The notes under the pieces were generated by a model that made no database searches, was not told where the DNA came from, and saw nothing but the letters and a program-made list of their open reading frames with translations. Of a stretch of DNA of 32,828 nucleotides, positions 7,101-26,414 are shown piece by piece. Every line of letters begins with the position of its first letter. The stretch's first letter is position 1. Made by a program: the position numbers and the translations under genes. The stretch lies in NCBI GenBank assembly GCA_041487215.1, contig JBGPMX010000003.1, positions 1-32,828 on the forward strand, in the 5' to 3' direction. This DNA comes from Planctomycetia bacterium. GTDB taxonomy: Bacteria > Planctomycetota > Planctomycetia > JALXBF01 > JBGPMX01.

Positions 7101-10100
7101 AACTTGGGCGACAGCATCAGGTCCGTCGCGGCTTCGCCCGGCCGTAAGGTGACGGTGGGGATCGTGTCGAAGTAGAAGCCGCGGATGAACACCTCCCACG
7201 TTCCGGCGTGCAGCTCCTCGATGCGAAATCGTCCCTCCGGGTCGGTGGTCCCGTGCGCGAGCCGTGCATTGTCGCCGCGGATGACCTGTCGGAGTGTCAC
7301 CTGCGCACCCGCGGCAGGCTGGTGCGTCGCGGCGTCCAGGACGTGCCCGCCGATCACGCCGGACGGCTCGAACAGCTCCTCGAAATAGATCGCGCGGAAC
7401 AGCTCGGCCACACCAACCACCCGTTGACCTCGGACGCTCAGAAACGTCGCCATGTCGGCGAGCGCCCGCACGTAATCGCCCCAGGTGTTCCCGAGCCGTG
7501 CCTGGATGTCGGGCCAGATCGCGTTCCATAGGTCATCGGGCAGATCCGGCGGGCGGATGGCGGCTTCGACCTGCTGGAAGTCAATCGGCCGATTGTCGTC
7601 GGCCGTAATCGTGTGCAGCAGGAACCGGCCGGTCCCGCCGTTCGTGTTGTAGAAGAATGGGATGCTGCCCAGCTCGCCCGCGCGGAGCACGCCGGCCGGC
7701 CCGTCGCCCGAGATGCCCAGCACCTGGAGCGTGCGGCCCGGTGCCAAATCGTCGCGTGACAGCCCGAACGGCACACCGTCGGGGCCTTGCACGATCAGTA
7801 GCGGCGCCACCGCGTCGGCGTCGCCGTTGTTGCCGTAGTTGGCGTAGAAGACATACTCGTGGTCGAGCCGCACAACAGCCGGGCCGTTCAGTGTGGCGCC
7901 GAGTCGCGGGCCGACGCCCGGCAGCACCACGAGGTCCAAGCCACTCGTCTCGCCGCTCGCGTTTGTTACGACGACGCGATAGCGATTCTGCGGCTCGCCG
8001 GAACCCCCTGACCCCGTCGGCGGCTGGCCGGTGAGGTCAAAGGTGACGAAGGCGGTCATCGGGTCCTGGATCTGGACTTGCGTGGGACTCAACACCCGGT
8101 CGCCATTGCGCGTGATCCGGAACGTCGTGCTCGCGTCCAACTGCGATCCCACCAGCCGCATCGTGACCGGGCCGGCGTTGCCGACCTGGGTGGGCGCCTC
8201 GAGCAGTGAGAACGGTAGCGTATGCACACTGACTCGGAACCTCTCGTGGCTGGAATCGTCGCTAGAGTTGTGGCTGGAGCCGGGGCTGAAGTCCGGGTGC
8301 GTGTCGCGCACATCGAGACGAACGAAGTAGGTGCCCGCCTGCGTGCGAGGGATGACCAGCGGCTTGGCGTCGCCCGAATGGAGGGAGCTCCGCAGCCATT
8401 CGTCCTCCCGAAGGTCGTGCGCAAACGGTGTAGGCACACGTCCGAACGCCACGTACGCCGCCGTTACGGTCTGCCGGGGCACCGTCTCGAAATGATCTCC
8501 CACGGGCGGGGCATCGTGCACGAACACGTCCGGGATATCGCTGAAAAGAGCCTCGATGGCGATGGTCTCGTCCTGCGGCGCGTCGAAGCGAAAATACAGG
8601 GCCTGTGTGTATTGATGGGGCACGAATGTGTCCACATCGGCCGAACCGGCCCCGTCGCTGAGCGCGATCTCCGGCACACTGACGGTGAAGCTATCGAGCG
8701 ACGCGCGTAAGTTGTTCGTCTCGTTGCTCTCCGGGATGACGTTGAATACGTCGCTGCGCACGATCAGGAAATAGTCGCCCGGTAAGACGGCCGGCAGCCC
8801 GGCGCCCGCGTGCACGGTCAGGCTTCCGCCCGGCTCGATCCGGCCCTGGGCTTCCTCGCGGTGCTGCAACAGGGAGAGCGGCACGTCGTCGGCGCTGTAG
8901 TGGTCGTCCGACGAAAGGTAGAGCCGGTCCCACCAGCTGCCCCGGGCGGCATTGGTGCCCAGGTTCTCGAGCGTGTACGAGAGCGATACGTTCGATCCGA
9001 CCGGCGCGTTTTGGGGAATCGTCACGCTGCCCACAAGCAGATCGGCGGGCGGCGCGAGCGACGCGACCAGCGCCGTAGGGTCGTATGCCGTGTTGTTCGC
9101 CTCGCCATCTGCCTCCAACACTTCGTCGCTCCGATCGGTTGCGACGAACACATAAAGCGGACCGGTGAGACCGGCCGGTACGCGGAAGGTCGCGCTGCGC
9201 GTGTAAACCTGGTAGGGATCGCCCGGGCCGGTCACGGGAACGAGATCTTCCATCCGGGCAGTCCGCTCGCCCAGAAAGTAATCGCTGCCCGCATCGAACA
9301 CCTGGTCGCGCGACAGGAACACCACGTCGCGCCAGTGGCCCGAGCGCAACTCGGGGCGTAACCGTTCGGGTGGAGTGCCGGGCGGGTCGATGAAGTCACC
9401 GACGTTGCGGACTTCCCAGGCGACGTCGAATTCCTGAGCGCTCAGCGCCTCGGCCGGCGCCGTGATGCTCGACACGATAAGGTCTGGCTTGAACCGCAAC
9501 GTCGCGACGTCGAGTTGACCGGCGAGCTGAGTGTTGTTCGAGTCGCTCTCCTCGAGGACCTGGTTGTCGGCATCGGCGCGGATGAAGAAATAGAGCAGGC
9601 CGCTCAGGCTCCGCGGCAGCTCCACCCAATCTGCACCCGCGTACTGGCCGCCGTGAGCAAGCGCCCCCGAGTGATACACGCTGTCGAGCAGCAGGTCATT
9701 GCCGTTGCCGAAAACGTCATCAGGGGATGCGTAGATCCCGTCGTGCCAGTACTCCGAGCTCGTGCGATTGGCGCCGCTGTTCGTCACGGTCCACTCCAGG
9801 CGGAGCCGCCCGTTCTCCGCGGCCAGTCTGGTCGGCAGCAGTTCCAGGTCCGCCGTCTCACGCGTGACCTGGATTGGCACCGCGCTCGATGCGTTGTTGC
9901 TCTCGTTGTCGGCCTCGAAAACCGCGTTGCCGGCGTCGCTGACGACAAAGAGGCTGTACGAGCCGGCGAACTCAAACGGCAAGCCGACGGTGGCCGCGTT
10001 CCCGTAGGACTGTCTGGGATCCAGCGCGCCGGTGTGGGAGACAAGGGCAAGCACCGTGTCGTCGCCGTCCCCCAGCGCGTCGTTGCGCGAGGCGATGATC

Positions 10101-13100
10101 TGGTCCGCCCAGGTGCCGACGATGGTGTCGCCGTCGCCCCGGTTGCGCACCGTCCAGGTGATCGTGATCGAGCCGCCTGCCGCCGGGGTGCCTGAGACCG
10201 CCGCCGACGCAACCACCAGGTCCGCCGGGAGCGAGTTGATGAGCACCGGCGCGGCGTCCGGGGCGACATTGTTGCCGTCGTTGAGTTCGAACACGCCGTT
10301 GTCGGCATCCACGGCAACAAAGACGTAGCGCGGGCCGCTCAGCCCGTTGGGCAGTGTGAGCGAGGCGGTGGCGTCGTAAGAACCGTCTACAGCCAGCGCA
10401 CCCAGGTGGGTCCGTTGGCCGAGCAGGAGGTCGACCGTCGGATCGAACTGACTGTCCTCGGACAGGTAGAACGCGTCGCTCCAGCTGTCGTTGGGCGTTG
10501 CGGTCGACCCGAAGTTGGTCACGTGGTAGCTCACAGTCATTGAGTGGCCGGCCAGGGCCGTGTCTGCGACGCCAACTCCCGATGCCTCCAGGTCCGGCGG
10601 CGGAGTCAAGTTGATCGTAGTGGGGACCGGGTCGTATCCGGAGTTATTCGTCTCGAAGGCGAACTCGTCGAGCTGGTTGGTCGCATCGGCCGCGACGAAG
10701 AAATAGAACGTTCCCGAGACCCCGGCCGGCAGCGTGACCACCGGGCGAGACGTGTACTCGTTGGTGCCGCGGAAGGTGGACGTGCTGTTCGGCACGCCCG
10801 TGAGCCGCCGATCCTCGGCCGGGTTGAGCACGTCATCGGCCGACATGTAGACGTCGTCGAACCATCCCTGTGGCGCGATGAGCGCCGCGCCCGTGTTGCC
10901 GACGGTGTAGGCGAGCGTGATCGCCTGACCGGAGAATGCCTGATCGGGAGCGTGGACCTGCGTGACCACGAGGTCCGGTGGGGGCGGCCGGTCCACATGG
11001 ACCCGGGGGCCCACGCCCACGTTATCTGCCTCGTCCAGGTATTCGAAGACCTGGCCGCGGGCATCGGCCATCACCAGCACGTAGTAGTCGCCCGGGCCGA
11101 CACCGCGCGCAGTTGCCACCGCGCTGCCGGGGTACCCCTGCCCCGCGCTCAGGTAGCTGGGGTTTACGGCGCCGCCGATGTAGACATCGGTGCTGTCGAG
11201 GATCTGATCGACTGAGAAGTAGGCGTAGTCGCTCCACTGCGGCGCGTCCGTCGGGCCAGTGCCGGCGTTGTTCACGGTCCAGGAGACCTGGAATGCATCA
11301 CCGAGCGTGACGCTCGATACCCCTGCGGTGACGCCGCTCACCTGAAGATTCGGGAAGGGGGACGACCGCACGTCGATCTGCCGATCGTCCACCGTGTTGT
11401 TGTTGCTCTCGGCGGCCCCTTCCGCAACGGCACTGTCGCCCGCGTCCGTCTCAATAACCACGTACCGCGGCCCACTCAGATCGATCGGCACGGTGACCGT
11501 CTGGGTCCGGAGGATGGAGCGATCGGGGTCGATCGACCCGGCGAAATCGAATTCACCGAGCATCAGATCGTTCCCCACGGTGCCGTCATCCGAAAGGTAA
11601 ACCCGGTCCTTCCAGGCGCCCGTCGCCGGGGCATCCCCGCGGTTCGTGATCCGCCACGTGATGTCGATCCGCTGGCCCGAGAACACTTCGAGCGGCGCGC
11701 TGACGTCACTCACGATCAGGTCGGCTGCCCTGAGCTGGATCGGCACCGCGCGGGTGTTGTTGGTCTCATCGGACTCCGGCTGGTATTGGCCCTGGCCGTT
11801 CGGCACGTAGCCGTTCCCCTGGTCGGCGACGATGAGCAGGTACCGGTTGCCCGCGGCGGTGTTGGGGATAAGCACGTCGCGCGTTCGGTCATAGCTCGAG
11901 CCGGCGGCCAGCGGCGTCTCGTCCGCGGCCGAGAACGAAGCCAGGAAGAGGTCCGACCCGTCCAGCGCCGTGTCGTCGGAGATGAAGATACTGTCGAACC
12001 AGCCGGCCGAGGCGGGGCCGTTCCCCTGATTGGCGACGCTCCAGGAGACCGCGACGGAGTTCCCCAGCACGGCGGAGGCCGGGGCGTTCACGCCGGGCGG
12101 CACCAGCAGGTCGGCGCCGGTGATCTCGATCGGCCTGGCCAGCACGTTGTTGCCGTTGTCGCTCTCGAACTGGTCGCCCCCGTGGTCGGTGACCACCAGT
12201 AGGTAACGGTTGCCGATCGCGGTGTCCGGGATCGTCAGATCACGGTTCAGGCTGTAGCTCAATTGGTTCAGAAGCGGCGTCTGGTCCCCAACCGGGAACG
12301 AACGCACGAAGAGGTCGGACGGGTCGAGGGTCGTGTCGTCCGAGACGAAGAACGCATCGGACCAGTCGGCAACGGCGTCGCCCGGGCCCCGGTTGAGCAC
12401 GGTCCAGGAGACCGTGATCGTCTCGCCCAGGGCGGCCGACACCGGGGACCCCAGATCGGTGGGCTTGAGGTCCGCGGCCTTGAGCTCGATCGGCCGCGCC
12501 AGGACGTTGTTCACGTAGTCGGTTTCCCCCTGCGCCTGCCCCGCATTGACCACGAACAGCAGGTAGCGACTGCCGGTTGCCGTGTCCGGGATGGTGATGT
12601 TCTTGGGGATCGTGTAGCCGCTGTCCTTACCGAGCGGTGTCTGGGCGGTGATGGATTCGGAGTCCAACGCAATGTCCGAACCGTCCAGCGTCGCGTCGTC
12701 GGACAGATAGATGGCGTCCTGCCAGTCGGCCAAGGCGGCACCGGGACCGAGATTGGTGACCAGCCACGAGACCGGGATCGTCTCGCCAAGTGCCGCCGAA
12801 GCCGGTGAGGAGGCATCTGAGACGACGAGGTCGGGAACCTGCGCTGATGTGGGCGCTGCGACGATGTTGTTCGTCTTGTTCGTCTCGGCCTGCCGGTTCT
12901 CTGCGTCAGTCACAAAGAGCAAGTACTTGCCCGTCACCGCGGTGTTCGGGATGGAGATGCCGTAGGGGACGGTGTAACTGGCCTGCGCGTCCAAAGGGGT
13001 GTACCAGGGCTCATTGAACAACACCGTATCTTCGGGGCCCGGTGTCGCATCGTCGGACAGGTAGATCTTGTCGCGCCAGACCGGGGATGCATGCGTGTCG

Positions 13101-15550
13101 GCCTGCTCGGAGCCGTCGTTCAGCACGGTGTAGGTGCCTTCGACGTACTGCCCGGGGCTCACCTCCGCCGGCACAATCGCCGAAATGACCAGATCGACGT
13201 CGGGCGGCGTTAACAAGATCGGCTGCGCGTACACGTTGTTGGTTTCGTCCGTTTCCCCTTGGTCCTCAAAGCCGTCCGCCACAACCAGCAGGTAGCGGTT
13301 TCCCGCCGCCGTGTTGGGGATTCTCACGGTCAGCGTGGTCGTGTAGCTGGCGCCGGCAGCCAGGGGGATGTGATCGCGTGGGTATGCCTCGTCCACGGTC
13401 GTATCGCTGTCGTCGAACACCATGTCGTCGGAGATGGCAATGACGTCGTCCCAGCCCGCCGCCGCGCTGCCGGGCCCGTGGTTGATGACCGTCCACGAGA
13501 CGTCGATCGTCTGGAAGATGACAGCCGAGTCCGGCGCCGAGGCGGCGGTGACCTCGAGGTCCGGCGCCTTGATCTCGATCGGCAGCGCGCGGACGTTGTT
13601 CGTTTCGTCGGTTTCGGACCTCTGGCCGAATGCGTCGGCGACGATCAGCAGGTACTTGCTTCCCGGTGTGGCTTCATCCAGGTTGACGGTTTGCGTGACC
13701 TGGTAGCTGCCACCGTTTGCATCCAGCGGCGGTGCGTTGTGCCGGTACTGGTCCAGCTGCGTGTCGCTGTCCACGTCGAATGCCACGTCATCGGACAGGA
13801 AGACCGCGTCGTACCAGCTGCCCGGGGCGAACACGCTCCCCTGGTTCGTGACGGTCCAGGAAACGGAGATCCGTTCCCCCACCGAGGCTGACGGGGGCGC
13901 CGACGCGGTCGGGGCGGGTACGATCAGGTCCGGCTTCTCCACGTCGATTGCCACCGCGACCACGTTATTCGTCTCGTCCGTCTCGTACTGGGCGTTATTC
14001 TTGTCCGTGACGAACAGCAGGTAGCTGGTTCCGGTGCCTGCGTCCGCAGGGATGGAGACGGTCAGAGGACCGCCGTAACTGAGACCACCCGCCAGCGGTG
14101 TCTCAGCACTCACGAACCGCAAGCCGATGGACTTGTCCCTGCTGGTGTCGAGCACCACATCATCGGAGATGTAAACATAGTCGTACCAGTCCTTGACCGC
14201 GGGCTCTGTTCCCTCGTTGCGCACGCTGAAAGGAACATCCAGCGCCTGACCCGCCACAACCACCGGCGGAACGGTTGGTGGAACGACCGTGAGGTCCACG
14301 TCCGGCCCGGTGATCTCGATCGGCACCGACACGACGTTGTTGGTCTCGTCGGTCTCGCCCTGGAAGTTCGAGTTGGAATACCGGTCGGTCGTAAAGAGCA
14401 GGTAGTGGCTGCCGGCCGTTGTATTCGGAATCGTGGCACTCTTGGTTACGTTGTAGCTTGTGCCTCCGGCCAGCGGTATCTGCGGCGCGATGGCAAAGCT
14501 GAAGACTATGGCCAGGTCGGTGTTGTCGAGAGTGTTGTCCGTGGAAAGGTAGACCACGTCGTACCAAAAGGGAGCGACTGTGCTCTCCGACCGTGCATTG
14601 CTTACTGTCCAGGAGACGTCGAAGGTCTGATAAACCGCCGCGGTGGCCGGGTGGGACGTGGGGGTGATCTGGAGATCAACGTCCGGGGCGGCGAGCGCGA
14701 TGGGCAGGACCTGGATGTTGTTGGTCTCGTCCGTCTCTCCCTGCGATCCGGAGACATCGGCCACGAAGAGCAGGTAGCGACTGCCCGCGTTGAACGCCGG
14801 GATGGTGACGTCCTGGCTGATCGTGTAGCTGTCCCCACCGGCCAGCGGGGTTCTATCCGCCGCGGAAAAGGTCTGCACGTTTTTGTCGATCGCGAAGCCA
14901 TCGAAGGTTGGGTCATTGGAAAGGACCAGCGCGTCGGTGTAGTCGGTCAGTGCCGACACGGAGCTGCTCTGGTTGTGCACGATAAATGAGACCGGGATCG
15001 TCTGGTGCATGGCGGCCGACGCAGGAGCCATCGCGTCCGACACCGCCAGATCCGGCGCCTGGATCTCGATGGCGCGCGCAAGGACGTTGTTGGTTTTGTC
15101 CGTCTCCGGCTGGTACCGGTCGTGGTCTGTCACGATCAGGAGATAGCGGGTGCCGGGCGTCGCGTTGTAGAGCGTCACGGAGTCGCTCAGGGTGTAGCTG
15201 GCCCCCGCGCCGAGCCGGTCGCTGCTGGGAGGATAGAACGCCCCGAGCACGGTGTCCCCGTCGTCCAGGATCGTGTCGCTCGAGAGGTAGGCGAAGTCTC
15301 TCCAGAGGGCGGGGCGGCTCGCGGTGGTGCCCTGGTTCTGGACCGTCCAGCGGATCGCGATCGTGTCGCCGCTGACCGCCGCCGCGGGGGCGGAAAGGTC
15401 TGTGATGACCAGGTCCACGTCGCTGGCGAGCAGCAGCCGCTCTTCCAAGTTTTCCAGCAATAACTCGCGCCGTTTGTTGCACTTGTGGCTGCGAGCTTGC
15501 CGGGGATTGCCCGGCCATGCGGCACGTTGGCAACGGGCAGATCGCATCAT
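1178..15550 (-). CDS. Giant exported multidomain protein (~4790 aa): LExRxLL signal, 18 CARDB-type repeats, Ig/IPT domains, carboxypeptidase-regulatory-like domain, propeller-like repeats, SxDPND domain, FN3-like domain, 4 SdrD-B-like domains, S8 subtilase
   Basis: Open frame. True start is likely ATGATG at 15550 with GGGAG RBS, followed by a basic leader and RRELLLENLEERLLLA. S8 motifs: VVILDTGID, HGHGSHV, SASGND, FSGTSMAAP. SdrD-B motifs of the type GxxFxDxDGDGxxDxGEPGLxxWTIFLDxDxDG. The ORF-track start at 15886 lies inside a MITE. Confidence 0.92.
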   Translation of the reverse strand: MMRSARCQRAAWPGNPRQARSHKCNKRRELLLENLEERLLLASDVDLVITDLSAPAAAVSGDTIAIRWTVQNQGTTASRPALWRDFAYLSSDTILDDGDTVLGAFYPPSSDRLGAGASYTLSDSVTLYNATPGTRYLLIVTDHDRYQPETDKTNNVLARAIEIQAPDLAVSDAMAPASAAMHQTIPVSFIVHNQSSSVSALTDYTDALVLSNDPTFDGFAIDKNVQTFSAADRTPLAGGDSYTISQDVTIPAFNAGSRYLLFVADVSGSQGETDETNNIQVLPIALAAPDVDLQITPTSHPATAAVYQTFDVSWTVSNARSESTVAPFWYDVVYLSTDNTLDNTDLAIVFSFAIAPQIPLAGGTSYNVTKSATIPNTTAGSHYLLFTTDRYSNSNFQGETDETNNVVSVPIEITGPDVDLTVVPPTVPPVVVAGQALDVPFSVRNEGTEPAVKDWYDYVYISDDVVLDTSRDKSIGLRFVSAETPLAGGLSYGGPLTVSIPADAGTGTSYLLFVTDKNNAQYETDETNNVVAVAIDVEKPDLIVPAPTASAPPSASVGERISVSWTVTNQGSVFAPGSWYDAVFLSDDVAFDVDSDTQLDQYRHNAPPLDANGGSYQVTQTVNLDEATPGSKYLLIVADAFGQRSETDETNNVRALPIEIKAPDLEVTAASAPDSAVIFQTIDVSWTVINHGPGSAAAGWDDVIAISDDMVFDDSDTTVDEAYPRDHIPLAAGASYTTTLTVRIPNTAAGNRYLLVVADGFEDQGETDETNNVYAQPILLTPPDVDLVISAIVPAEVSPGQYVEGTYTVLNDGSEQADTHASPVWRDKIYLSDDATPGPEDTVLFNEPWYTPLDAQASYTVPYGISIPNTAVTGKYLLFVTDAENRQAETNKTNNIVAAPTSAQVPDLVVSDASSPASAALGETIPVSWLVTNLGPGAALADWQDAIYLSDDATLDGSDIALDSESITAQTPLGKDSGYTIPKNITIPDTATGSRYLLFVVNAGQAQGETDYVNNVLARPIELKAADLKPTDLGSPVSAALGETITVSWTVLNRGPGDAVADWSDAFFVSDDTTLDPSDLFVRSFPVGDQTPLLNQLSYSLNRDLTIPDTAIGNRYLLVVTDHGGDQFESDNGNNVLARPIEITGADLLVPPGVNAPASAVLGNSVAVSWSVANQGNGPASAGWFDSIFISDDTALDGSDLFLASFSAADETPLAAGSSYDRTRDVLIPNTAAGNRYLLIVADQGNGYVPNGQGQYQPESDETNNTRAVPIQLRAADLIVSDVSAPLEVFSGQRIDITWRITNRGDAPATGAWKDRVYLSDDGTVGNDLMLGEFDFAGSIDPDRSILRTQTVTVPIDLSGPRYVVIETDAGDSAVAEGAAESNNNTVDDRQIDVRSSPFPNLQVSGVTAGVSSVTLGDAFQVSWTVNNAGTGPTDAPQWSDYAYFSVDQILDSTDVYIGGAVNPSYLSAGQGYPGSAVATARGVGPGDYYVLVMADARGQVFEYLDEADNVGVGPRVHVDRPPPPDLVVTQVHAPDQAFSGQAITLAYTVGNTGAALIAPQGWFDDVYMSADDVLNPAEDRRLTGVPNSTSTFRGTNEYTSRPVVTLPAGVSGTFYFFVAADATNQLDEFAFETNNSGYDPVPTTINLTPPPDLEASGVGVADTALAGHSMTVSYHVTNFGSTATPNDSWSDAFYLSEDSQFDPTVDLLLGQRTHLGALAVDGSYDATASLTLPNGLSGPRYVFVAVDADNGVFELNDGNNVAPDAAPVLINSLPADLVVASAAVSGTPAAGGSITITWTVRNRGDGDTIVGTWADQIIASRNDALGDGDDTVLALVSHTGALDPRQSYGNAATVGLPFEFAGSYSLFVVSDAGNAVFEADNESNNASSAVPIQVTRETADLELLPTRLAAENGRLRLEWTVTNSGANRTSSEYWHDGIYASPDDVFGNGNDLLLDSVYHSGALAHGGQYAGADWVELPRSLSGLLYFFIRADADNQVLEESDSNNTQLAGQLDVATLRFKPDLIVSSITAPAEALSAQEFDVAWEVRNVGDFIDPPGTPPERLRPELRSGHWRDVVFLSRDQVFDAGSDYFLGERTARMEDLVPVTGPGDPYQVYTRSATFRVPAGLTGPLYVFVATDRSDEVLEADGEANNTAYDPTALVASLAPPADLLVGSVTIPQNAPVGSNVSLSYTLENLGTNAARGSWWDRLYLSSDDHYSADDVPLSLLQHREEAQGRIEPGGSLTVHAGAGLPAVLPGDYFLIVRSDVFNVIPESNETNNLRASLDSFTVSVPEIALSDGAGSADVDTFVPHQYTQALYFRFDAPQDETIAIEALFSDIPDVFVHDAPPVGDHFETVPRQTVTAAYVAFGRVPTPFAHDLREDEWLRSSLHSGDAKPLVIPRTQAGTYFVRLDVRDTHPDFSPGSSHNSSDDSSHERFRVSVHTLPFSLLEAPTQVGNAGPVTMRLVGSQLDASTTFRITRNGDRVLSPTQVQIQDPMTAFVTFDLTGQPPTGSGGSGEPQNRYRVVVTNASGETSGLDLVVLPGVGPRLGATLNGPAVVRLDHEYVFYANYGNNGDADAVAPLLIVQGPDGVPFGLSRDDLAPGRTLQVLGISGDGPAGVLRAGELGSIPFFYNTNGGTGRFLLHTITADDNRPIDFQQVEAAIRPPDLPDDLWNAIWPDIQARLGNTWGDYVRALADMATFLSVRGQRVVGVAELFRAIYFEELFEPSGVIGGHVLDAATHQPAAGAQVTLRQVIRGDNARLAHGTTDPEGRFRIEELHAGTWEVFIRGFYFDTIPTVTLRPGEAATDLMLSPKLLPDPDPQPSAEPPHLDQADPALAIDASGVPHMIWTHNQELWHASYNGSAWVGAGPIPGAIPDSYAIQAAGNLIDGQAAGILVTWRQGQGNNSDIYYSLGRARAGGAYEWSAPINLTLDSAYDDSPTVVVTNSGRVLLVSQKYDDTLQDDADLYARLVEIGSAGLIWPAGVATAALAGTDDLGFRAAVDSPDIVSVGFGYQNQLPSWIPLIGGKKNIAVLGVLNRSKNCEVAKISGFVQLKAEVADDVEFAGELNASLSAAAEPGGYSVNEFKLGGAISGSVDIPFVKIPVPMPPIPLGIVLVDLGDELAKFSVGASFGFGLSGSYKWTVDQPAQANLYTDLSVGAFGKAKLLNKIRVQAKVLGTARWEAYPRFLTFKRLTVTMDVLVTAGPWGGAMTAVWIEDPSRPTGSSLQLSAASEPFALETPRPGPTTQSLSLHYGPHAGTGTVYGSGSILSNVASDLSEDGPATLAKAPNGDIYLAWAKDADPASPGPLGDRVLVSRFDGTRWNEPVELPGSRGFSDKPAIGFGPGGEPIIVWSMADTSALTPQSDTNQILGTLTRNDVVFSTYRNGAWSTPVPIWTANGRESEVVVSVSADGRLLATWKHAADSGTQLMAAFWDGNGWTTPEAVDVGAITGPAAITQLHGNTVLFWTQDVTGNLNNNDPSIFQSTFNGHWSEPTAFDPVAAATTASGADFGPSSSQAEGSTARFRASDLDLTDWLYSVDWGDVPSDCSKKPKKPPQPKPNDPRPLPLPVPPPPPVPTPPEPPQPYEPRQAVSLDPNDIIGPTGFGSEAWVSSSDTLPYMIRFENKADASGPAQRVVITQALDDDLDVRSFRVADFGWGDQHIELDAKQGFYQGRIDLFDTLGYAVDITASVDVQTGLATWVLSTVDPQTGESPADALLGFLPPNDSSGIGEGFVTYTIRPKHDVTTGARIDARARVVFDTNEPIDTPGIANALDSAPPTSAVDLLSAATAESTFLVSWSGRDDEGGSALADFAIYVSDNGGPFVRWLVGTSLTEALYTGEPGHAYAFYSVARDNAGNIEAPPATPDAQTHVGALPAGEIHGQEFNDLDGDGTKDAGEPGLADWTIFLDLDDDGLLDTEEPSTVTDANGAYVFTALAPGSYVVAEVMQQGWMQTSPGPGGSTSAAPVSRTALGDVRVTIAGVRSSDETTPSSLVSAERAGGLIALDAFRADPRFAGIDGSGLSVVILDTGIDPDHPFFGADGDSNGVADSVVYQWDFVHDDADASDDHGHGSHVSSIVASRDLVHRGVAPSVNLIELKVLDSTGSGSFASVERALEWVIAHAAQYRIAGVNMSFGDGGNYSTPQLRAGISNDLAALAALGVIVVSASGNDFYADGSRQGVAYPSADPNSLSIGAVWSADAGGPFTWKNGARDLSTAADRIVSFSQRDDGLSDAFAPGALIAGAGLGGGVATFSGTSMAAPYVTGVAALAQQLALDKLGRRLTLDEFRSLLVSTATIIKDGDDERDNVTNTGLSFARVDVLALAEGILALAGGAPLATIGSHATTGEAPHDRPARSPVIAGSRTVQVAAGDVLDGIDFGNFRKITIRGSIYEDHNGNGLQDTEDQGLAGWTLFLDADDSGTLDAGEASTQTDAQGNYAFLDLGPGTYRVRQVVEPGWFRTTGNPETIFASSGGDVANADIGDTPARPGKIKGHAFEDMNGDQRYDAGEPLLAGWVVLLDSNGNGIPDPGERSKLTRPNGTYSFKNLDPGDHAVVLVSASGFVAVPMHASVPPGGVARKIDVAAYQPGRIRGKIFHDDNRNGAQDADEARLPGWTVFLDLDGDGSQDPNEPSKVSNGTGKFVFPDLAPGLYHVTQMVQQGWVQTAPADAASRAVRLLSGARGRVRFGNDDSASGSVTPSQRPAAAALRPAATLDVVPLSVPTPPQSDPERAPAVDAVLASRVDRGVAPIQDGFEPIEPERLGETPAQRGCAHDLIEACVLDDVLATWHAR
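8690..15421 (-). repeat. Tandem array of 18 CARDB-type Ig-like repeats (~120 aa each) within the giant protein
   Basis: Recurring unit xDLxV...P...G..I.V.WTV.N.G...W.D..YLS.D...D..D...G.YLL.V.D...E.DETNN, counted 18 times in the translation. Confidence 0.88.
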
Positions 15551-15605
15551 GACAAGTCTCCCGAACGAACAACCAAGAACCGGAGCCTGAGCCCCTGAAT
15601 GCGTA

Positions 15606-15631
15606 TATGCGCCGGGTTCGGGAAACCTGTC
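15606..15631 (-). promoter_or_regulatory. Putative ECF-sigma promoter of the giant protein gene (GACAGGT-N12-GCGCATA)
   Basis: Minus strand GACAGGT ttcccgaacccg GCGCATA, ending about 55 nt before the ATG. Same boxes and spacing as 20783-20808. Confidence 0.7.
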
Positions 15632-15732
15632 AGTGATCTCAATGCTGGAGTGGCAACGTCGCTGCGCGACCGCCTGAAGGGGTACGGGAAGCAGGCTGGG
15701 GAGATGTGGAGGCGAGGCGTGCGGCGCGGCCC

Positions 15733-15801
15733 TCAACCCTCGACTGATGTGCTCTGCGCGGCTGGCAGATCGCCAGGAGGCATCGGCTCGGCCACTACAT
15801 C
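15733..15801 (-). pseudogene. Orphaned ancestral 3' end of the kinase gene (DVVAEPMPPGDLPAAQSTSVEG-stop)
   Basis: Removing the MITE and one TSD copy rejoins ...EAEALL in frame to 22 further codons and a TGA at 15733-15735. Confidence 0.75.
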
Positions 15802-15809
15802 GAGCAGCG

Positions 15810-15900
15810 GGTACTGGGTCAGTTTGGCTGATACCCCCCCTTGTCCCCCCCTTGCTAAGGGGGGGACAGGGGGGGTCGCATTTCAAACTGACCCAGTACC
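15810..15900. mobile_element. 91-bp MITE with 17-bp perfect TIRs and 8-bp target-site duplication (possibly IS1595-family)
   Basis: GGTACTGGGTCAGTTTG (15810-15826) and CAAACTGACCCAGTACC (15884-15900) are exact reverse complements. GAGCAGCG flanks both ends (15802-15809, 15901-15908). The interior is a poly-C/poly-G hairpin. The family guess rests only on TSD length and TIR appearance. Confidence 0.9.
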
Positions 15901-18900
15901 GAGCAGCGCCTCGGCTTCCGCACGGAACCCGAGCAACTCGACATCATCAGGCTTGTTGGTGTTCATCCACTCGACCGCCTGGTCGTACCATCGCCGTGCG
16001 GCGTCTCGGTCCCCGAGGCGCCAGTGCGCCATGGCCAGGAAGAAGAAGTCGAAGCTGTGTCCGCCCTGAAGTTCGACGGACCTCTCCAGTGCGGCGACGG
16101 CGGATTCCCAGTCGATCGCCCGATAGTAGGCGATCCCGAGCGTGTTCCACGAGTACCCGTCGTGCGGGCTGAGCTCGACAGCGCGTCGGGCCAACCGGAC
16201 TGCCAAGACAGGGTCGTGACTCTGGTGGTCCTGGCCGGTGACGAGGTGCCAGGCCGAGCTGTTGCAGGCCTCGGCGCTGTTCGGTTCTGGACCCAGAGGC
16301 TCGAGCAGCTGGGCAGCGATGCGCTCGCGCACCGAGCGTAGCAGCTCATCCGCGCTGTCGCGTGTCCGTGCCGCCTCCTCGGGCCGGCCGGTTGTTTCGA
16401 GGCAGCTGCCGAGCCGATCGAGACTGACGATCAGCTCGTCCGCGTAGCCGATCGTGTCTGGGAAGTCGGCCGCTAGTCTCTCGAACACCGTAACCGCTCT
16501 GCCGTACGCGTCGCGCGCCGGCGCATCCTCACCCCGCCGCAGGTAGATATCTCCCGCGCGCCGGAATGCGCTGCCGGCCTGTTGCCGCACCGCGGGTTCG
16601 TCTGCTCCTCGATCCAGCGCCGCCGCGTATGCGGCGGCAGCCTGTTGCCAATCGCCGCCGGCGGCGTACACGCGAGCGCGGTCTGCGTAGTGTTGCCACT
16701 GCGATGGCGCCGCGGCGATCAGGCGGTCCAGGTGGAACGCCGCAGCGGACCATTGCCCGCCGCGCAGGCAATCGTCGGCTTCGTAGCGATGCCAGGCAGT
16801 CACGGCGTCTGGCGACGCGATCACATCGGCCGGGTATTGCGTACGCAACGTTTGCCATGCCTCACGCGTCGTGGCGGAGTCGATCGGAACCAGGCCGCCG
16901 GTATGGTCAATCTGGTGCGCGGCGACGAGCGGTGCCAGACGCTGCAAGTCTGCGACGGAATGCGCGTCGCAAGGCAGCTGCCACACCTGTGCGGTCCCGT
17001 CCCAGCTGGCGGTGACGATGCGGCGGCCGTCCGGGCTGAACTCCGCGTAGCCCACGCGGCTCTTGTGCTTCAAGATTGGTGTGACCGGTTCGCCCGTGCT
17101 CGCGTCCCACACCCGCGCCGTGCCGTTGTGGCAAGCCGTGACCAGGCGGCGCCCGTCACGGCTGAACAACACGTGGATCACGTGACTTCCGTGCATTAAC
17201 GGGGGCGTGGTGGCACGCCCGGTCTCGGCGTCCCAGACGCGGGCCGTGCTATCCTCGCTGGCGGTGACGATGCGATCGCCCTGGGGGCTGAACGAAGCAG
17301 CTAGCACACCGTCGCGGTGCCTGAGGGGGCTGCCTACGCGATCGCCCGTCTCTACGTCCCACACCTGGGCCTCGCGCTCCTCGAGCGAGCCGTCCCAGCA
17401 GGCGGTGACAACACGGTGTCCGTCGGGACTGAAGCTGGCGTGTTCGACCCAGTTGTCGTTGGGAAAGCTCTTGAGCTCCGCGCCGGTCGCGACGTCCCAG
17501 AGGCGCGCCGTATGGTCGTAGCTGGCCGTGACGACGAGCCGGCCGTCCGGGCTGAACGACGCGTCCCGCACGCGATCTTGGTGTTTTAGCGGCCCACTGG
17601 TTGGTTGCGCCGTTACCGCATCCCACACCCGCGCCGTGCCGTCGTCGCTGGCGGTGACGATGAGCCGGCCGTCGGGGCTGAACGAGGCGTGTTGCACCGC
17701 CGCGCCGTGCAGCGTAAAGAAGCTGAGCGGCTGGCCGGTCAGCGTATCCCACACCCGCGCGGTCCTGTCTGCGCTGGCGGTCACGACGCGGCTACCGTCC
17801 GGGCTGAACGATGCGTGCGTTACCGCTCCGCGGTGCCGCAACGGCGGCCCGGCTGGCTGGCTGGTCGCCGCGTCCCACAGCTGCGCCGTGCCGTCTTCGC
17901 TGGCCGTAAGCACCAGGTGCCCGTTCGGGCTGAACGCGGCGTGGGACACCGCGCCGCGGTGCCGCAGCGGCGGCAGCAATCGGTCGCTCGTGGCCAGATC
18001 CCACAACCGGGTCGTCCGGTCCCACGAGCTCGTCAGCACGCGGCGTCCGTCGGGCGCGAACGCTGCGCACAGCACAAAACTGCCGTGCCGGAGCGACGGA
18101 CTGACCGGCTCACCCGTCGCCGCATCCCATACGCGTGCCGTGCCGTCGTAGCTGGCTGTCACGACCCGCCGGCCGTCAGGACTGAACGACGCCTTCAGAA
18201 CCGCCGCGCTGTGCCTGAGCGGCGACAGGGTCACGAGGGTACCGCTCTCGGTGTTCCACACCGCGGCAGTCCAGTCCCAGCTGGCGGTAACCACGCGGCG
18301 GCCGTCTGGACTGAACGAGGCGGTGATCACGCCCTCCAGGTGTTTGAGGGGCGGCGCGCACGGTTCGCCGGTCTGCGCGTCCCAGAGGCGTGCTTCACCG
18401 GGACCGCCGAATCCGCCGGCAGCGGTCACGACCCGGCGGCCGTCCGGGCTGAATGAGGCCTGATTGACAAACGTGGAGTGCGCAAGCGGCGGCGTGATCG
18501 GTTCGCCCGTGTCGCTGCTCCACACGCGCGCCGTGAAATCGCCGCTGGCCGTAACCACGCGGTCCCCGTTCGGGCTGAACGATACGTAGGCGACCGCCGC
18601 GCGGTGCCGCAGCGGCGGACCGACCGGGGCGCTCGTCGCCACGTCCCATACCTGAGCGGTCCCGTCGCGGCTCGCCGTGGCCACACGCCGCCCGTCGGGG
18701 CTGAAGCACGCGTGCCGGATGGCGTCTCCTTGCTTGAGCGGCGCGCTGCGCGGCTCGCCGGTCGCTGCGTCCCAGACCCGCGTCGTCGAGTCTGCGGCGG
18801 CGGTGACCACCAGGCTGCCATCGGGGCTGAATGCCGCGTGAGCCAGTCGGGCGGCATGACGCAGCGGCGGCGTGACGGGTTCGCCCGTCTCTGTGTCCCA

Positions 18901-20721
18901 CACCCGTGCGATCCCGTCCTCGCTCGCGGTCACCACCCGTCGCCCGTCGGGGCTGAATGCCGCGTGCCAGGCGGCACGATCGTGGAACCAGATCTCGACC
19001 AGCTTGGGGCTCCGCATCCAGACAGCGGCCAGGCGCATGCGGTGCATCTCTTGCCGCGCCGGGTCTTGCTTATCGAGCCCCATGGCGCGGACGAACCAGG
19101 GGATCGCGGCGAAGAAGTCCCCCTCGTTCGTGAACCGCACCCCATTGGCGATGCTCAGCCGCACCAATTGTTCGGTGGCCTCGTCGCGCTGCCGCACGGC
19201 CTCGACCCGCGCGCGCGCGATCAGCACCGTGCTGGCCGCGAGACCAAGAACCGCCGCGACCAGCAGCCCGGCTGCGAGCAGCACCGCCGTCTTGTGCCGC
19301 CGCGACCACTTGGCGAGCCGCTGCGCCACCGTGGGACGTCCGGCCCGAACCGGCTTGTCCTCGATGAAGCGTCTCAGGTCATCTGCCAGCTCCGCCGCCG
19401 CGGCGTAGCGCTCCGAGGGCACCTTGGCCATCGCCTTCAACACGATAGTCTCGAGATCGCGTGGGATGCGCCGGTCAAGCCGGCGCGGCGGTAGTGCTTC
19501 GGCCTCGGCCACCTGCTTGATGAGACGTGCACGGTCCGGCTCGTCGAACGCCGGGCGCGCGGTCAAGAGCTCGTAGAGCGTCAGCCCCAGGCCGTAGATG
19601 TCGCTGCGTGGGTCCGACCATCCCTGGAACCGCTCGGGCGCCATATATCGCAGGGTCCCAAGCAGGTCGCCGGTGTGCGTGAGCTCATCGGCTCCCTCCG
19701 CCTTGGCGAGGCCGAAGTCGGTCACCCAGACGGTGCCGTGCCTGTCGAGCAGCAGGTTCGAAGGCTTGATGTCGCGGTGCAGCACGCCGTTTTGGTGCGC
19801 ATAGGCAAGGGCCTCGGCGGCCTGGATGCCGATGCGTGCGACGCTGTAGAAATACTGCCGGCGCGAACCTGCCGCGCTGGGGATGTCCGACGAGCCGGGC
19901 AGCGCCGGCGCCGTTCCACGCCTGGGTCGACCGACCCCTGTACCGGGCTCGGACCCGTCCGAAGACGCTTGCGTGGTGCCCGGGTCAGGCTCGCGCGCCG
20001 TATCGGGCGCCGAGCCATCCGCCGGCGTGAATTTTCCGGTGAGCAATCGCCGCGCAAGGCCGGCGCTATCGGCGTCCCATGCCCGCGAGGTCGCAGTGCC
20101 GCCGGGCCCCGCGGTTGCACCCATCCGGGCCATCTCGCCCAGCAGCTGATCGAGGCCCCAGCCGTCGATGAACTGCATGGCGTAAAAATGCGCCGCCCCC
20201 TGCTCGCCGACGCCGAACACCGGCACGATGTTGCCGTGGTGCAAGCGGGCGGCGGCGCGCGCCTCGCGATGGAACCGGCGCACGTGGTCCCGGTCCATCA
20301 GTAGTTGCGCCGGCAGTACTTTGAGCGCCACGTGTCGGCCGAGCGATTGCTGCTCGGCCTCGTAAACGACGCCCATGCCGCCCCGGCCGATCTCGCGGAT
20401 GATCCGGTAATCGCCCAGCATGCTGCCGGCCGGCTGCGCGGGCCCCGGGCGGCGGGAACCGGATCCGCTGGCGGGCCGCAACTCGCAAAGTCGCTCGATC
20501 AAGCCCTCGACCGCCTCGCTATCCGGGCCCGCGCCGAGCGGCGCCTGCGCCCGGAGCGGCCCCAGCAGCTTGTCGGTGTCCGTGAGTGCGTCCACCGCCT
20601 TGGCGCAGCGATCGCACTCGAGCAGATGCCGCGCCATCGGTTCCGCCTCGACATCCGAGCTCTCGCCGAACGTGAACCGGCGGAGGGCTTCGGCGTCAGG
20701 GCAACCGGACGGTAGCTGCAC
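15883..20721 (-). CDS. Membrane-anchored Hanks-type Ser/Thr kinase with N-terminal zinc anti-sigma (HxxxCxxC) motif, 16 WD40 repeats and C-terminal TPRs (~1612 aa)
   Basis: GTG at 20721 with GGAG RBS. CPD...RHLLECDRC. Kinase motifs [32 protein letters not shown]. One TM segment ([24 protein letters not shown]). 16 FSPDGxxVVTASxDxTARVWD units. TPR-like [11 protein letters not shown]. Confidence 0.95.
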
Positions 20722-20782
20722 GGTATCACTCCGGGGACCGCGCGCGGGCCGGCCGCCCAGGCAGAACGATCCAGCAAGAAAG

Positions 20783-20808
20783 TATGCGCGATCGCGGGCG
20801 GACCTGTC
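20783..20808 (-). promoter_or_regulatory. Putative ECF-sigma promoter of the kinase gene (GACAGGT-N12-GCGCATA)
   Basis: Minus strand GACAGGT ccgcccgcgatc GCGCATA, ending about 61 nt before the GTG. Identical boxes to 15606-15631. Confidence 0.7.
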
Positions 20809-20880
20809 CCGGCTTCCGGAAGAAAACGGGCGGCTCTGCGGTTGCCGGGCCCCACGCACCGAAAGGCGGCCGAGCGCCCA

Positions 20881-21444
20881 TCATTCCAGCAAACCTTTGA
20901 GCTCCTGGTGCAACCGCCGTAGTACACGCGACTTCGCGAGATAGACGGCGTTCACGCTCATGCCCAGTTCGGCCGCGACTGCGGCGGCCGGCCGGCTCCC
21001 CACCACGCACTCCCAGCACGCCTTCCAGGTGGTCGGTTCGAATTCCTGCTGCATGAGCTTCAGTGCGCGGCCGACGAGGTAGCGGCGGTACTCGAACTCG
21101 TCGAAGTCGTCGGTCTCCGGCGCACGCAGATCGGCAATGGGCGGGTCGGTCGGCCCGGCCGTCGGCAGGGCGCGGCGACGCCGCTGCTCGCGCCACTTGT
21201 TCCGCGTCACGGTGCGCAGCCAGCCTCGGAAACTCTTCTCCGGGTCGTACGCGAAGCCAGGCAGCTTTTGCACGAGCACGAGCAGCACTTCCTCGACAAG
21301 ATCGGCGGCGTCCTCCGGTCCCAAGCCCACACGACGCGACCAGGAATAGAGCAGCGGTGTATAGAGCTTGACGAAGCGCGACCATGCCTCCTGTTCGGAA
21401 GGCTGCCGCAGGCGTTCGAGCAGGCTTACCGAGGTGGTGTACAT
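20881..21444 (-). CDS. ECF-family RNA polymerase sigma factor, planctomycete kinase-associated type
   Basis: 187 aa with sigma2 (AWSRFVKLYTPLL...EDAADLVEEV...SFRGWLRTVTRN) and sigma4 HTH (AAVAAELGMSVNAVYLAKSRVLRRL). N-terminal TSVSLLERLR. Directly upstream of a Ser/Thr kinase. Confidence 0.95.
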   Translation of the reverse strand: MYTTSVSLLERLRQPSEQEAWSRFVKLYTPLLYSWSRRVGLGPEDAADLVEEVLLVLVQKLPGFAYDPEKSFRGWLRTVTRNKWREQRRRRALPTAGPTDPPIADLRAPETDDFDEFEYRRYLVGRALKLMQQEFEPTTWKACWECVVGSRPAAAVAAELGMSVNAVYLAKSRVLRRLHQELKGLLE

Positions 21445-21515
21445 GGGGCAGGCGACGGCCCGATCCTGTGCGCAGACGGCGAGAGCCGCGGCTGACGGGC
21501 GGGGCGACGCCCGCC

Positions 21516-21544
21516 AGTATAGACCGGCGCGCGAGCAGAGTCAT
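21516..21544 (-). promoter_or_regulatory. sigma70-like promoter of the ECF gene (ATGACT-N17-TATACT)
   Basis: Minus strand ATGACT ctgctcgcgcgccggtc TATACT. The spacer is 17 nt, and the -10 ends about 71 nt before the ATG. Confidence 0.6.
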
Positions 21545-21570
21545 ACGAACGAAGCTTCCGGCGGCGCTGC

Positions 21571-21696
21571 TGCGGTGTACAGATGCTCGTCCGTGTCAAC
21601 TGGGAATGCCTTGAAGCGGGACGGATACACATGCCCGTAGCCGACTCGCCCCCGATGCAACCGCCAACGCCGGACGTGGGTTGTCCCCAGGCGCTG
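21571..21696 (-). pseudogene. Internal fragment of a Y1 HUH transposase (RAYT / IS200-like)
   Basis: Translates as QRLGTTHVRRWRLHRGRVGYGHVYPSRFKAFPVDTDEHLYTA, matching the RAYT segment TH..RW..H....GH(V/L)YQxRFKxFPV..DEH. The HUH motif and the catalytic Y(V/I)ERN part are absent. Confidence 0.75.
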
Positions 21697-21748
21697 GTCC
21701 GTGGCGCCCGATGCTGCGCTGATCCTACCCACCCGGTTGAATCAGTCC

Positions 21749-21777
21749 CTCGGTAGCAGAGCAGACCCTGCTGCGAG
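21749..21777. terminator. Imperfect hairpin just downstream of the HD hydrolase gene (terminator or REP remnant)
   Basis: CTCGGTAGCAG...CTGCTGCGAG pairing, 12 nt past the stop codon. No clear U-tract. Confidence 0.3.
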
Positions 21778-21789
21778 AGTTGTGGCGCC

Positions 21790-22302
21790 TCACCTAGCCA
21801 GGGCCGCCAACAATTCCGTGATCGCCTGTTCGAGCACGGGGCAGGCGCCCCGCAGCGATTCCAGCAAACGAGGGGTTTCGCTCACGAGCCGTTTCCGCTT
21901 GCCCGGGTCCGTCGTGCCGCTCTCGAGGTTATCCAGTCGGTCCGCCAGCTTGATGAGCTTCGCCTCGCGGGACGCGCTGGCCATGCGGCGGATCATGTCC
22001 TCATGACGTTCGCGCTTCGGCAGCCGGCTGTCGTTGGTCAATTCCGCGACAATCCGCGCCACCCGCTCCCCGAACGCCTCGGCCAGCTCGTCGTGGCGCG
22101 TCCCCGAGTCCTCGATCGTATCGTGTAGGACGGCCGCGCAGAGGATCTCGACGTCCTCGCATCCCGCCCGCCGCCTCAGATGCTCGGCCACGCGGAGCGG
22201 GTGCACGATATAATCCGTCTCGCCGCCTGCCTCGTGGCGCTTCTGGCCGCGATGCTGCTCGAAGGCGAAGACCACCGCGCTCGCGTACAGCCTGTAATCC
22301 AC
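21790..22302 (-). CDS. Mesh1-like small alarmone hydrolase (RelA/SpoT HD domain only)
   Basis: Motifs HRGQKR, YIVHP, AAVLHDTIED, VAELTND, KLADRLDNL. 170 aa with no synthetase domain. Confidence 0.88.
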   Translation of the reverse strand: MDYRLYASAVVFAFEQHRGQKRHEAGGETDYIVHPLRVAEHLRRRAGCEDVEILCAAVLHDTIEDSGTRHDELAEAFGERVARIVAELTNDSRLPKRERHEDMIRRMASASREAKLIKLADRLDNLESGTTDPGKRKRLVSETPRLLESLRGACPVLEQAITELLAALAR

Positions 22303-26357: not shown

Positions 26358-26414
26358 TGCTGATACCCCCCCTTGTCCCCCCCTTCGGAAGGGGGGGAAG
26401 GGGGGGTATCAGCA
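26358..26414. repeat. Poly-C/poly-G palindromic element (near-perfect 57-nt hairpin)
   Basis: TGCTGATACCCCCCCTT-GT-CCCCCCCTTC-G-GAAGGGGGGG-AAGGGGGGGTATCAGCA. Related copies at 15828-15876 and 26554-26590. Confidence 0.85.

Follow-up and report, generated by a model that had tools for sequence, protein, structure and literature searches.

A stretch of 32,828 nucleotides from a Planctomycetia bacterium (contig JBGPMX010000003.1, assembly GCA_041487215.1), called the window in the following, carries on its minus strand three genes in head-to-tail order: for a sigma factor of the extracytoplasmic function (ECF) type, for a protein kinase and for a giant surface protein. The latter two genes are each preceded by the same bipartite motif, GACAGGT-N12-GCGCATA. 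We regard it as likely that this motif is the −35/−10 promoter of a planctomycetal clade of ECF sigma factors, and that it belongs to a circuit consisting of the sigma factor, the kinase with an attached anti-sigma domain, and the giant protein. As judged from synteny, the adjacent sigma factor would be the one that reads the motif, since site and sigma gene are found together in several families of the class; transcription would be expected to start downstream of GCGCATA. An earlier reading of the window, made from the letters only (the sequence-only reading), had already ascribed the boxes to the adjacent sigma factor. Conservation, position and geometry speak for this, with the modification that the boxes are slightly wider than proposed, namely tGACAG(G/A)TT and GCGCATAnT.

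A motif search of the window yielded exact copies on the minus strand at 15606–15631 and 20783–20808; the coordinates, strand and unrelated 12-nt spacers reported earlier were thereby reproduced exactly. The box GACAGGT occupies 15631–15625 and 20808–20802, and GCGCATA occupies 15612–15606 and 20789–20783. The site before the kinase gene, with GACAGGT in the −35 region and GCGCATA in the −10 region, lies 72 nt past the stop codon of the sigma gene and ends 61 nt ahead of the GTG start codon at 20721. The site before the giant gene (tGACAGGTTtc...GCGCATAtac) ends 55 nt before the ATG at 15550, in agreement with the distances of about 61 and 55 nt that had been given. Outside the 14 box positions, 12 of 47 columns of flank and spacer are identical, which is background at this G+C content; the two sites thus do not stem from a recent duplication. 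When any equal gap of 0–30 nt was allowed between the two 7-nt boxes in the 159-nt and 332-nt upstream regions, an exact 7+7 match arose in 3 of 300 mononucleotide shuffles, and the pair in the window is therefore by itself only suggestive.

The window's own draft genome (G000; 5,271,933 bases in 816 contigs, 80% complete) was scanned for further copies, as the sequence-only reading had proposed. Exact matches were restricted to the two sites in the window, and up to two mismatches gave background numbers (21 matches versus 38 for the reversed control pattern). The sole copy with one mismatch, on contig C159, was rejected as a further site; it is situated inside an open reading frame (ORF) of 570 amino acids, on the other strand. 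A weight matrix was built solely from nine loci outside the window. With this independent matrix the site before the giant gene, which matches the extended consensus in full, scored 25.0, the highest value in the window and in the whole genome, as compared with 19.4 for the best reversed-sequence control. No further site in G000 rose above that control (scores of at least 17: 9 versus 9; at least 20: 1 versus 0). The regulon visible in this genome, as far as assembled (80%), thus comprises two promoters, since no further confident sites were detected. An intragenic candidate in the giant gene, GAGAGGTTCC-N8-GTGCATA at 8221–8245 of the minus strand, was discarded because its score of 18.1 is below the control maximum and indistinguishable from background.

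The decisive evidence comes from homologous loci. These were gathered by relatives of the sigma factor: eight from species-representative genomes (45–64% identity; two distant matches were left out), 18 from metagenomes, and a further 29 from 400 sampled genomes of the class. After removal of same-contig duplicates and of loci with less than 150 nt downstream, 42 loci were kept, with sigma factors 45–71% identical to that of the window. With at most three mismatches and a spacer of 11–13 nt, 19 of the 42 loci contained the motif on the sense strand between −20 and +230 relative to the sigma stop codon; by number of mismatches in the best match, these were three loci with none, one with one, four with two, and eleven with three. 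At the same threshold the motif turned up in 22 of 840 shuffles (2.6%); of 41 control regions comprising the 250 nt upstream of the sigma gene one had a match, and so did one of the 42 loci when the opposite strand was searched. Widening of the search to 900 nt raised the number to 23 of 43 loci; a match at +365 in L086, obtained in this wider search, was judged false. About half of the 42–43 loci thus bear the motif, although their sigma factors are only 51–71% identical to that of the window and spacer and flanks are not conserved. In more distant sigma homologues (35–47% identity) the kinase gene mostly abuts or overlaps the sigma gene, and no motif was found there. Within the family of the window's organism there is one further genome, G001; as its contig ends 81 nt from the sigma homologue, it falls outside the downstream comparison.

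Thymines which had played no part in the selection were conserved in the 23 sites: before the first box in 16, after the first box in 20, and two bases past the second box in 16; farther upstream, conservation extended to a stretch rich in T. From the 23 sites the extended consensus tGACAG(G/A)TT-N11-GCGCATAnT was derived, and the expectation that a concrete consensus would emerge for this kinase-linked clade was borne out. A motif search in regions upstream of orthologous kinase genes had been suggested as well. In an unseeded count of hexamers over 40 non-redundant downstream regions, that of the window not included, the top five words were CAGATT, CGCATA, ACAGAT, GACAGA and ACAGGT, so that both boxes are represented, with z-scores of 7.5–8.4, whereas 100 shuffles reached at most 6.6. 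These z-scores took the place of raw hexamer counts, in which, with no expected frequency taken into account, G+C-rich words prevailed. A count of exact 5+5 dyads in 16 loci was too strict to show the motif, with top dyads in three loci, as in 18 of 100 shuffles.

The exact 14-base pattern was found 11 times in 400 other genomes of the class, versus six times for the reversed control. Five of these 11 matches, in four genomes, sit between a sigma homologue and a kinase homologue, and the remaining six are inside long ORFs, mostly antisense. Scans with up to two mismatches in five genomes carrying the exact motif gave background numbers beyond the sigma-adjacent sites; an extra near-exact site in G187 was dismissed, being located inside an ORF of 455 amino acids on the opposite strand.

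The geometry of the sites is that of a promoter rather than of an operator or an RNA element, since the boxes are asymmetric and stand at a fixed distance around a free spacer, and since strand and place, just ahead of a gene, are constant. Of the 19 best sites, 17 have 12 nt and two have 11 nt between the 7-nt boxes, which is the kind of fixed spacing expected for contacts with sigma domains 4 and 2. From the end of the second box to the kinase start codon, 44–88 nt were counted in 11 of 15 loci with a site, and 146–180 nt in three. The motif is thus conserved together with a clade of sigma factors and adjoins the gene of the sigma factor or of its regulator. In these respects (two short asymmetric boxes, fixed distance, conservation with the sigma clade, position by the regulator gene) it is like the group-4 ECF promoters as described in the main text of PMC7826278.

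The sigma factor gene (20881–21444, minus strand; 187 amino acids) was identified by matches to Sigma70_r2 (E 1.5e-12) and to the sigma70-ECF family TIGR02937 (E 1.2e-14). The acidic patch of region sigma-2.2 (DAAD, in the context EDAADLVEE) is kept in the window and nearly invariant in 26 homologues; in their alignment A46, D48 and Q51 are conserved in at least 90%. Upstream of the window's sigma gene the matrix from non-window loci detected no motif, and in 40 of 41 loci the 250 nt preceding the sigma gene were free of matches with up to three mismatches. This absence is in keeping with a sigma gene that is not part of its own regulon. The claim of the sequence-only reading that the motif is missing there could be confirmed; its further claim of a non-autoregulated sigma factor is supported by the same counts, but needs a qualification, since the "kinase" is, by the evidence below, also an anti-sigma factor, and the sigma factor would thus still be within a feedback loop which closes through its regulator. 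A sigma-70-like site, ATGACT-17-TATACT, is present at 21516–21544 on the minus strand, about 70 nt before the sigma start codon, and agrees with the consensus in nine of 12 positions. It is the sole such site in the 6.6 kb from 15400 to 22000 (shuffle mean 0.3) and is a candidate, on weak evidence, for a housekeeping promoter of the sigma gene.

The kinase gene (15883–20721, minus strand) encodes a protein of 1612 amino acids with a Hanks-type Ser/Thr kinase domain (Pkinase, E 2.9e-37) and WD40 propellers (E 5.7e-120, in 14 stretches). The GTG at 20721 aligns with residue 1 of 25 homologues, which came from 25 loci that passed the filters of a full-length sigma gene followed by a kinase N-terminus on the same strand. 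Residues 1–90 (20452–20721) would form a zinc-type (C...HxxxCxxC) class I anti-sigma domain, on the basis of conserved residues and profile matches. An N-terminal cysteine and the HxxxCxxC signature (C7, H32, C36, C39) are conserved in at least 90% of 26 homologues. The N-terminal profile matched solved chains of known anti-sigma factors, namely DdvA (8rlz_A, 4.6e-7), 3hug_B (4.5e-5), ChrR (1.2e-3) and RsiW (0.015), and the Pfam family zf-HC2 matched 17 of the 26 members (best E 3.4e-7), so that profile and Pfam comparisons both point to similarity with known anti-sigma domains.

A complex of the sigma factor with residues 1–90 was predicted with a score of 0.67, versus 0.00 for the best control; the mark applied to this score had been reached by 58 of 80 solved complexes and by two of 110 mismatched pairs. 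The runs shared at least 80% of contacts, and the predicted local distance difference test (pLDDT) value of the partner was at least 68. The predicted interface is on sigma residues 15–58 and 117–187 and would cover sigma-2 and sigma-4. The prediction supports, short of demonstrating, binding of the domain to the sigma factor, with the restriction that its pass may partly reflect likeness to, or memory of, solved sigma/anti-sigma complexes. Because of the conserved C/HxxxCxxC residues, the profile matches, the predicted complex and the retained acidic patch, the pair is read as a sigma factor and an anti-sigma factor fused to a kinase/WD40 sensor. No convincing terminator was found between the sigma and kinase genes (fold z +0.69; no terminator-like site).

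Several known systems could be compared. Planctomycetes have about 40 ECF sigma factors per genome on average, according to the main text of the ECF classification (Casas-Pastor et al. 2021, PMC7826278), which lists ECF43, ECF59–62, ECF217, ECF267 and ECF283 as kinase-linked groups; EcfP/PknT of Vibrio and EcfK/PknS of Xanthomonas are examples (PMC7826278, PMC8103513, PMC13147305). The window resembles these groups in that, in a planctomycete, an ECF sigma gene adjoins the gene of a Hanks-type Ser/Thr kinase. In ECF43, as far as described in the main texts of PMC13147305 and PMC8103513, uncharged residues stand in place of the acidic DAED patch of sigma-2.2, and phosphorylation of a threonine is required; unlike ECF43, the sigma factor of the window keeps DAAD. 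The kinase-linked groups are also stated to be typically without a co-encoded anti-sigma factor (PMC7826278, main text), whereas the kinase protein of the window itself begins with an anti-sigma domain. This domain is like the class I zinc anti-sigma factors (DdvA, 8rlz; 3hug chain B; ChrR, 2q1z; RsiW, 5wuq) in its Cys plus HxxxCxxC pattern and profile match and, in the predicted complex, in being packed against sigma-2 and sigma-4; it differs from them by its fusion to a cytoplasmic kinase with WD40 repeats instead of a transmembrane or cupin sensor. The position of the site is likewise unlike that of the usual ECF promoter, being downstream of the sigma gene and not upstream of the sigma operon. 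The ECF classification predicts promoters on the premise of autoregulation (PMC7826278); if, as we interpret its main text, this means looking upstream of the ECF gene, the published pipeline would miss the site of the window. Full-text searches of the literature brought up neither this promoter nor, for Planctomycetes, a fusion of anti-sigma factor and kinase, although an earlier description is possible. A comparable arrangement exists in another phylum. In BldN/RsbN of Streptomyces the anti-sigma gene directly downstream of the sigma gene is a target of that sigma factor, and the sigma gene is under other regulators; the anti-sigma fold is unrelated to that of the window module, and no kinase is involved.

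A circuit can be proposed in which the sigma gene, lacking the motif, would probably be expressed from a promoter of the housekeeping type, and the zinc-type anti-sigma domain of the adjacent kinase-WD40 protein would keep the sigma factor inactive. Upon release, sigma-RNA polymerase would initiate transcripts at two sites, in each case a few bases past GCGCATA. The site before the anti-sigma/kinase gene would provide negative feedback and reset the switch, and that before the gene of the 4790-aa surface protein with CARDB and subtilase domains would provide the output. The negative sign of the feedback is inferred, because the promoter makes the anti-sigma factor, and not the sigma factor, the conserved target. 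A more general module could perhaps be envisaged for Planctomycetes, although we would sooner doubt than accept it in all its parts: the anti-sigma factor would be the N-terminal domain of a giant Hanks kinase/WD40 protein, the gene of which would be the one conserved target of the sigma factor, with the sigma gene outside the loop; what governs release of the sigma factor would be the activity of the kinase or ligands bound by the propellers, and not proteolysis or sigma phosphorylation; outputs would be added genome by genome, the giant subtilase-bearing surface protein being that of the window; and an antisense copy of the motif at one locus (L091, see below) would act as a second brake. 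What the evidence supports is an ECF promoter with unusual boxes and placement within what appears to be a sigma/anti-sigma-kinase module, which would not be surprising in kind.

Paralogues of the sigma factor bear on these assignments. The window's own genome contains 28 sigma candidates in a first-look search, three of them at E 1e-20 or better, and up to five close paralogues per genome were noted elsewhere. On contig C48 of G000 (downstream of 12852) a more distant sigma paralogue (42% identity) precedes a kinase-type gene whose N-terminus shows the same CP...HxxxCxxC pattern; the boxes in the spacer are different ones, GTCACAC ... GGGGTAG. Genome G267 possesses two paralogous sigma-kinase pairs with almost the same promoter, TGACAGGTT...GCGCATA (C340:7074-7100) and TGTCAGGTT...GCGCATA (C409:38390-38416).

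A number of observations weigh against the interpretation as promoter of this sigma clade, or against parts of the circuit. A search for RNA sequencing runs for 15300–21600 yielded none. The kinase-side site lacks the flanking thymines of the extended consensus (gGACAGGTc), and its score with the independent matrix, 15.7, does not rise above background, since scores of at least 15 occurred 50 times in G000 versus 58 times in the control. At most three mismatches gave no match in 23 of the 42 loci; several of these have diverged variants and some nothing recognisable. Among the variants are GTCAATC-N12-GCGCA(T/C)A in L010 and L056, GT(G/A)AGGT in L052, L054 and L057, where it overlaps the stop codon of the sigma gene, and the −10 boxes GCGTGTA, GTGTGTA, GGGGATA and GTTCGTA. 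Exact motifs go with sigma identities of 52–62% and variants with closer ones of 63–71%, so that the sequence of the boxes does not simply track the similarity of the sigma factors. The hallmarks given for ECF promoters in the main text of PMC8103513 are AAC at −35 and CGT at −10; the sites of the window (GACAGGT/GCGCATA) have GACAGGTT and GCGCATA instead. CGT-type −10 boxes do occur in some homologues (GCGTGTA in L057, L081 and L090; GCGTAA in L039), and the −10 box of the window is similar to ECF promoter boxes of the CGT type. With zf-HC2 the anti-sigma domain of the window itself reaches an E value of 0.22, which does not pass the Pfam threshold. No counterpart of the second site, that of the giant gene, was present in L039, L041, L045 and L046, with about 10 kb available downstream of the sigma gene, or in L056 and L058, with 1–2 kb. 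Finally, the assignment of the site to the adjacent sigma factor over a paralogue is not proven, because the two pairs of G267 carry nearly identical promoters, and cross-recognition among close paralogues is possible.

The last point leads to the alternative that the motif is a real regulatory site which is read by a paralogous ECF sigma factor or by a DNA-binding transcription factor. The sigma family is heavily expanded, and the G267 pairs would suit such a reading; against this, many genomes from several families have the site immediately past the sigma gene, without exception on the same strand, and the paralogue on C48 has different boxes at the same place, as would be expected if each sigma factor had its own promoter. 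Dimeric transcription factors usually bind palindromic or directly repeated sites, and the boxes are neither. We consider this alternative improbable, while giving it more weight than the two that follow. The motif might act in RNA, as a processing or binding site in the 5' leader of the kinase mRNA or in a sigma-kinase co-transcript, and since no convincing terminator separates the two genes, co-transcription is possible and the motif would then be transcribed. Yet the spacer is free, the boxes are not complementary and no conserved structure was seen; no Rfam family reached the threshold between 15300 and 21900, the four weak matches corresponding to a hairpin repeat described below. Furthermore, the same motif precedes the giant gene behind that strong hairpin repeat, and sigma domains 4 and 2 require precisely such an arrangement, with two short boxes a fixed 12 nt apart. 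A function in RNA is for these reasons very unlikely.

Coincidence without any function would account for the two copies in the window insofar as about 1% of the shuffles gave such a 7+7 match, and insofar as the six intragenic ones among the 11 exact class matches equal the six control matches. It is contradicted by positional conservation at 19–23 independent loci, by the conserved flanking bases which had not been selected for, and by the word enrichment obtained without a seed; we attach hardly any credence to it. A promoter read by the adjacent ECF sigma factor is therefore preferred here.

If this promoter reading holds, a concrete and testable consensus becomes available for one kinase-linked planctomycetal clade, together with the name of a likely output gene, that of the 4790-aa surface protein with a protease domain. 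Searches made only upstream of sigma genes miss promoters of this kind. The fusion of anti-sigma factor and kinase, as it looks, differs from the phosphorylation switch of ECF43. We know of no experiments on this sigma clade; sigma factor, promoter and anti-sigma factor form a triple that should be testable in a heterologous host.

The giant gene (1178–15550, minus strand; ATG start at 15550 taken from the translation) is the putative output. Its product of 4790 amino acids contains CARDB (3.5e-102), Peptidase_S8 (8.5e-39), SdrD_B (1.3e-43) and carboxypeptidase-regulatory-like domains. Coupling of the circuit to this surface-protein gene looks particular to the organism, as no second site was found in the compared loci and genomes. 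Between the kinase and giant genes a palindromic interspersed repeat of about 92 nt is situated (15805–15900, minus strand; minimum free energy −80.2 kcal/mol, z −9.8), which holds the stop codon of the kinase gene. It has arms with runs of G and C, and dozens of copies at about 90% identity exist on other contigs. The repeat probably ends or insulates the kinase transcript, so that transcription of the giant gene would depend on a separate promoter. A partial copy was noticed at 26359–26413 of the window; the element is similar to those of the repetitive extragenic palindromic (REP) or miniature inverted-repeat transposable element (MITE) type. A terminator-like hairpin with a T-rich run is located at 15573–15598 on the minus strand, between the motif and the ATG of the giant gene, that is, in the predicted 5' leader; terminator-like sites in the region are no more numerous than in shuffles.

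Two loci showed additional copies of the motif. In L041 a divergent form, GACAGGT-N12-GTTCGTA, is found at 6450–6475 of the minus strand, about 170 nt upstream of the sigma gene and pointing away from it, with no convincing ORF behind. L091 (G312:C102) contains two exact copies in one spacer between sigma and kinase genes, at 1128–1153 and 1355–1380; one faces the kinase gene and ends 146 nt before its start, and the other, on the opposite strand, points into the sigma gene at its 3' end and is a possible antisense promoter. In L092/L104, from a genome of the same genus as L091, only the sense copy was present.

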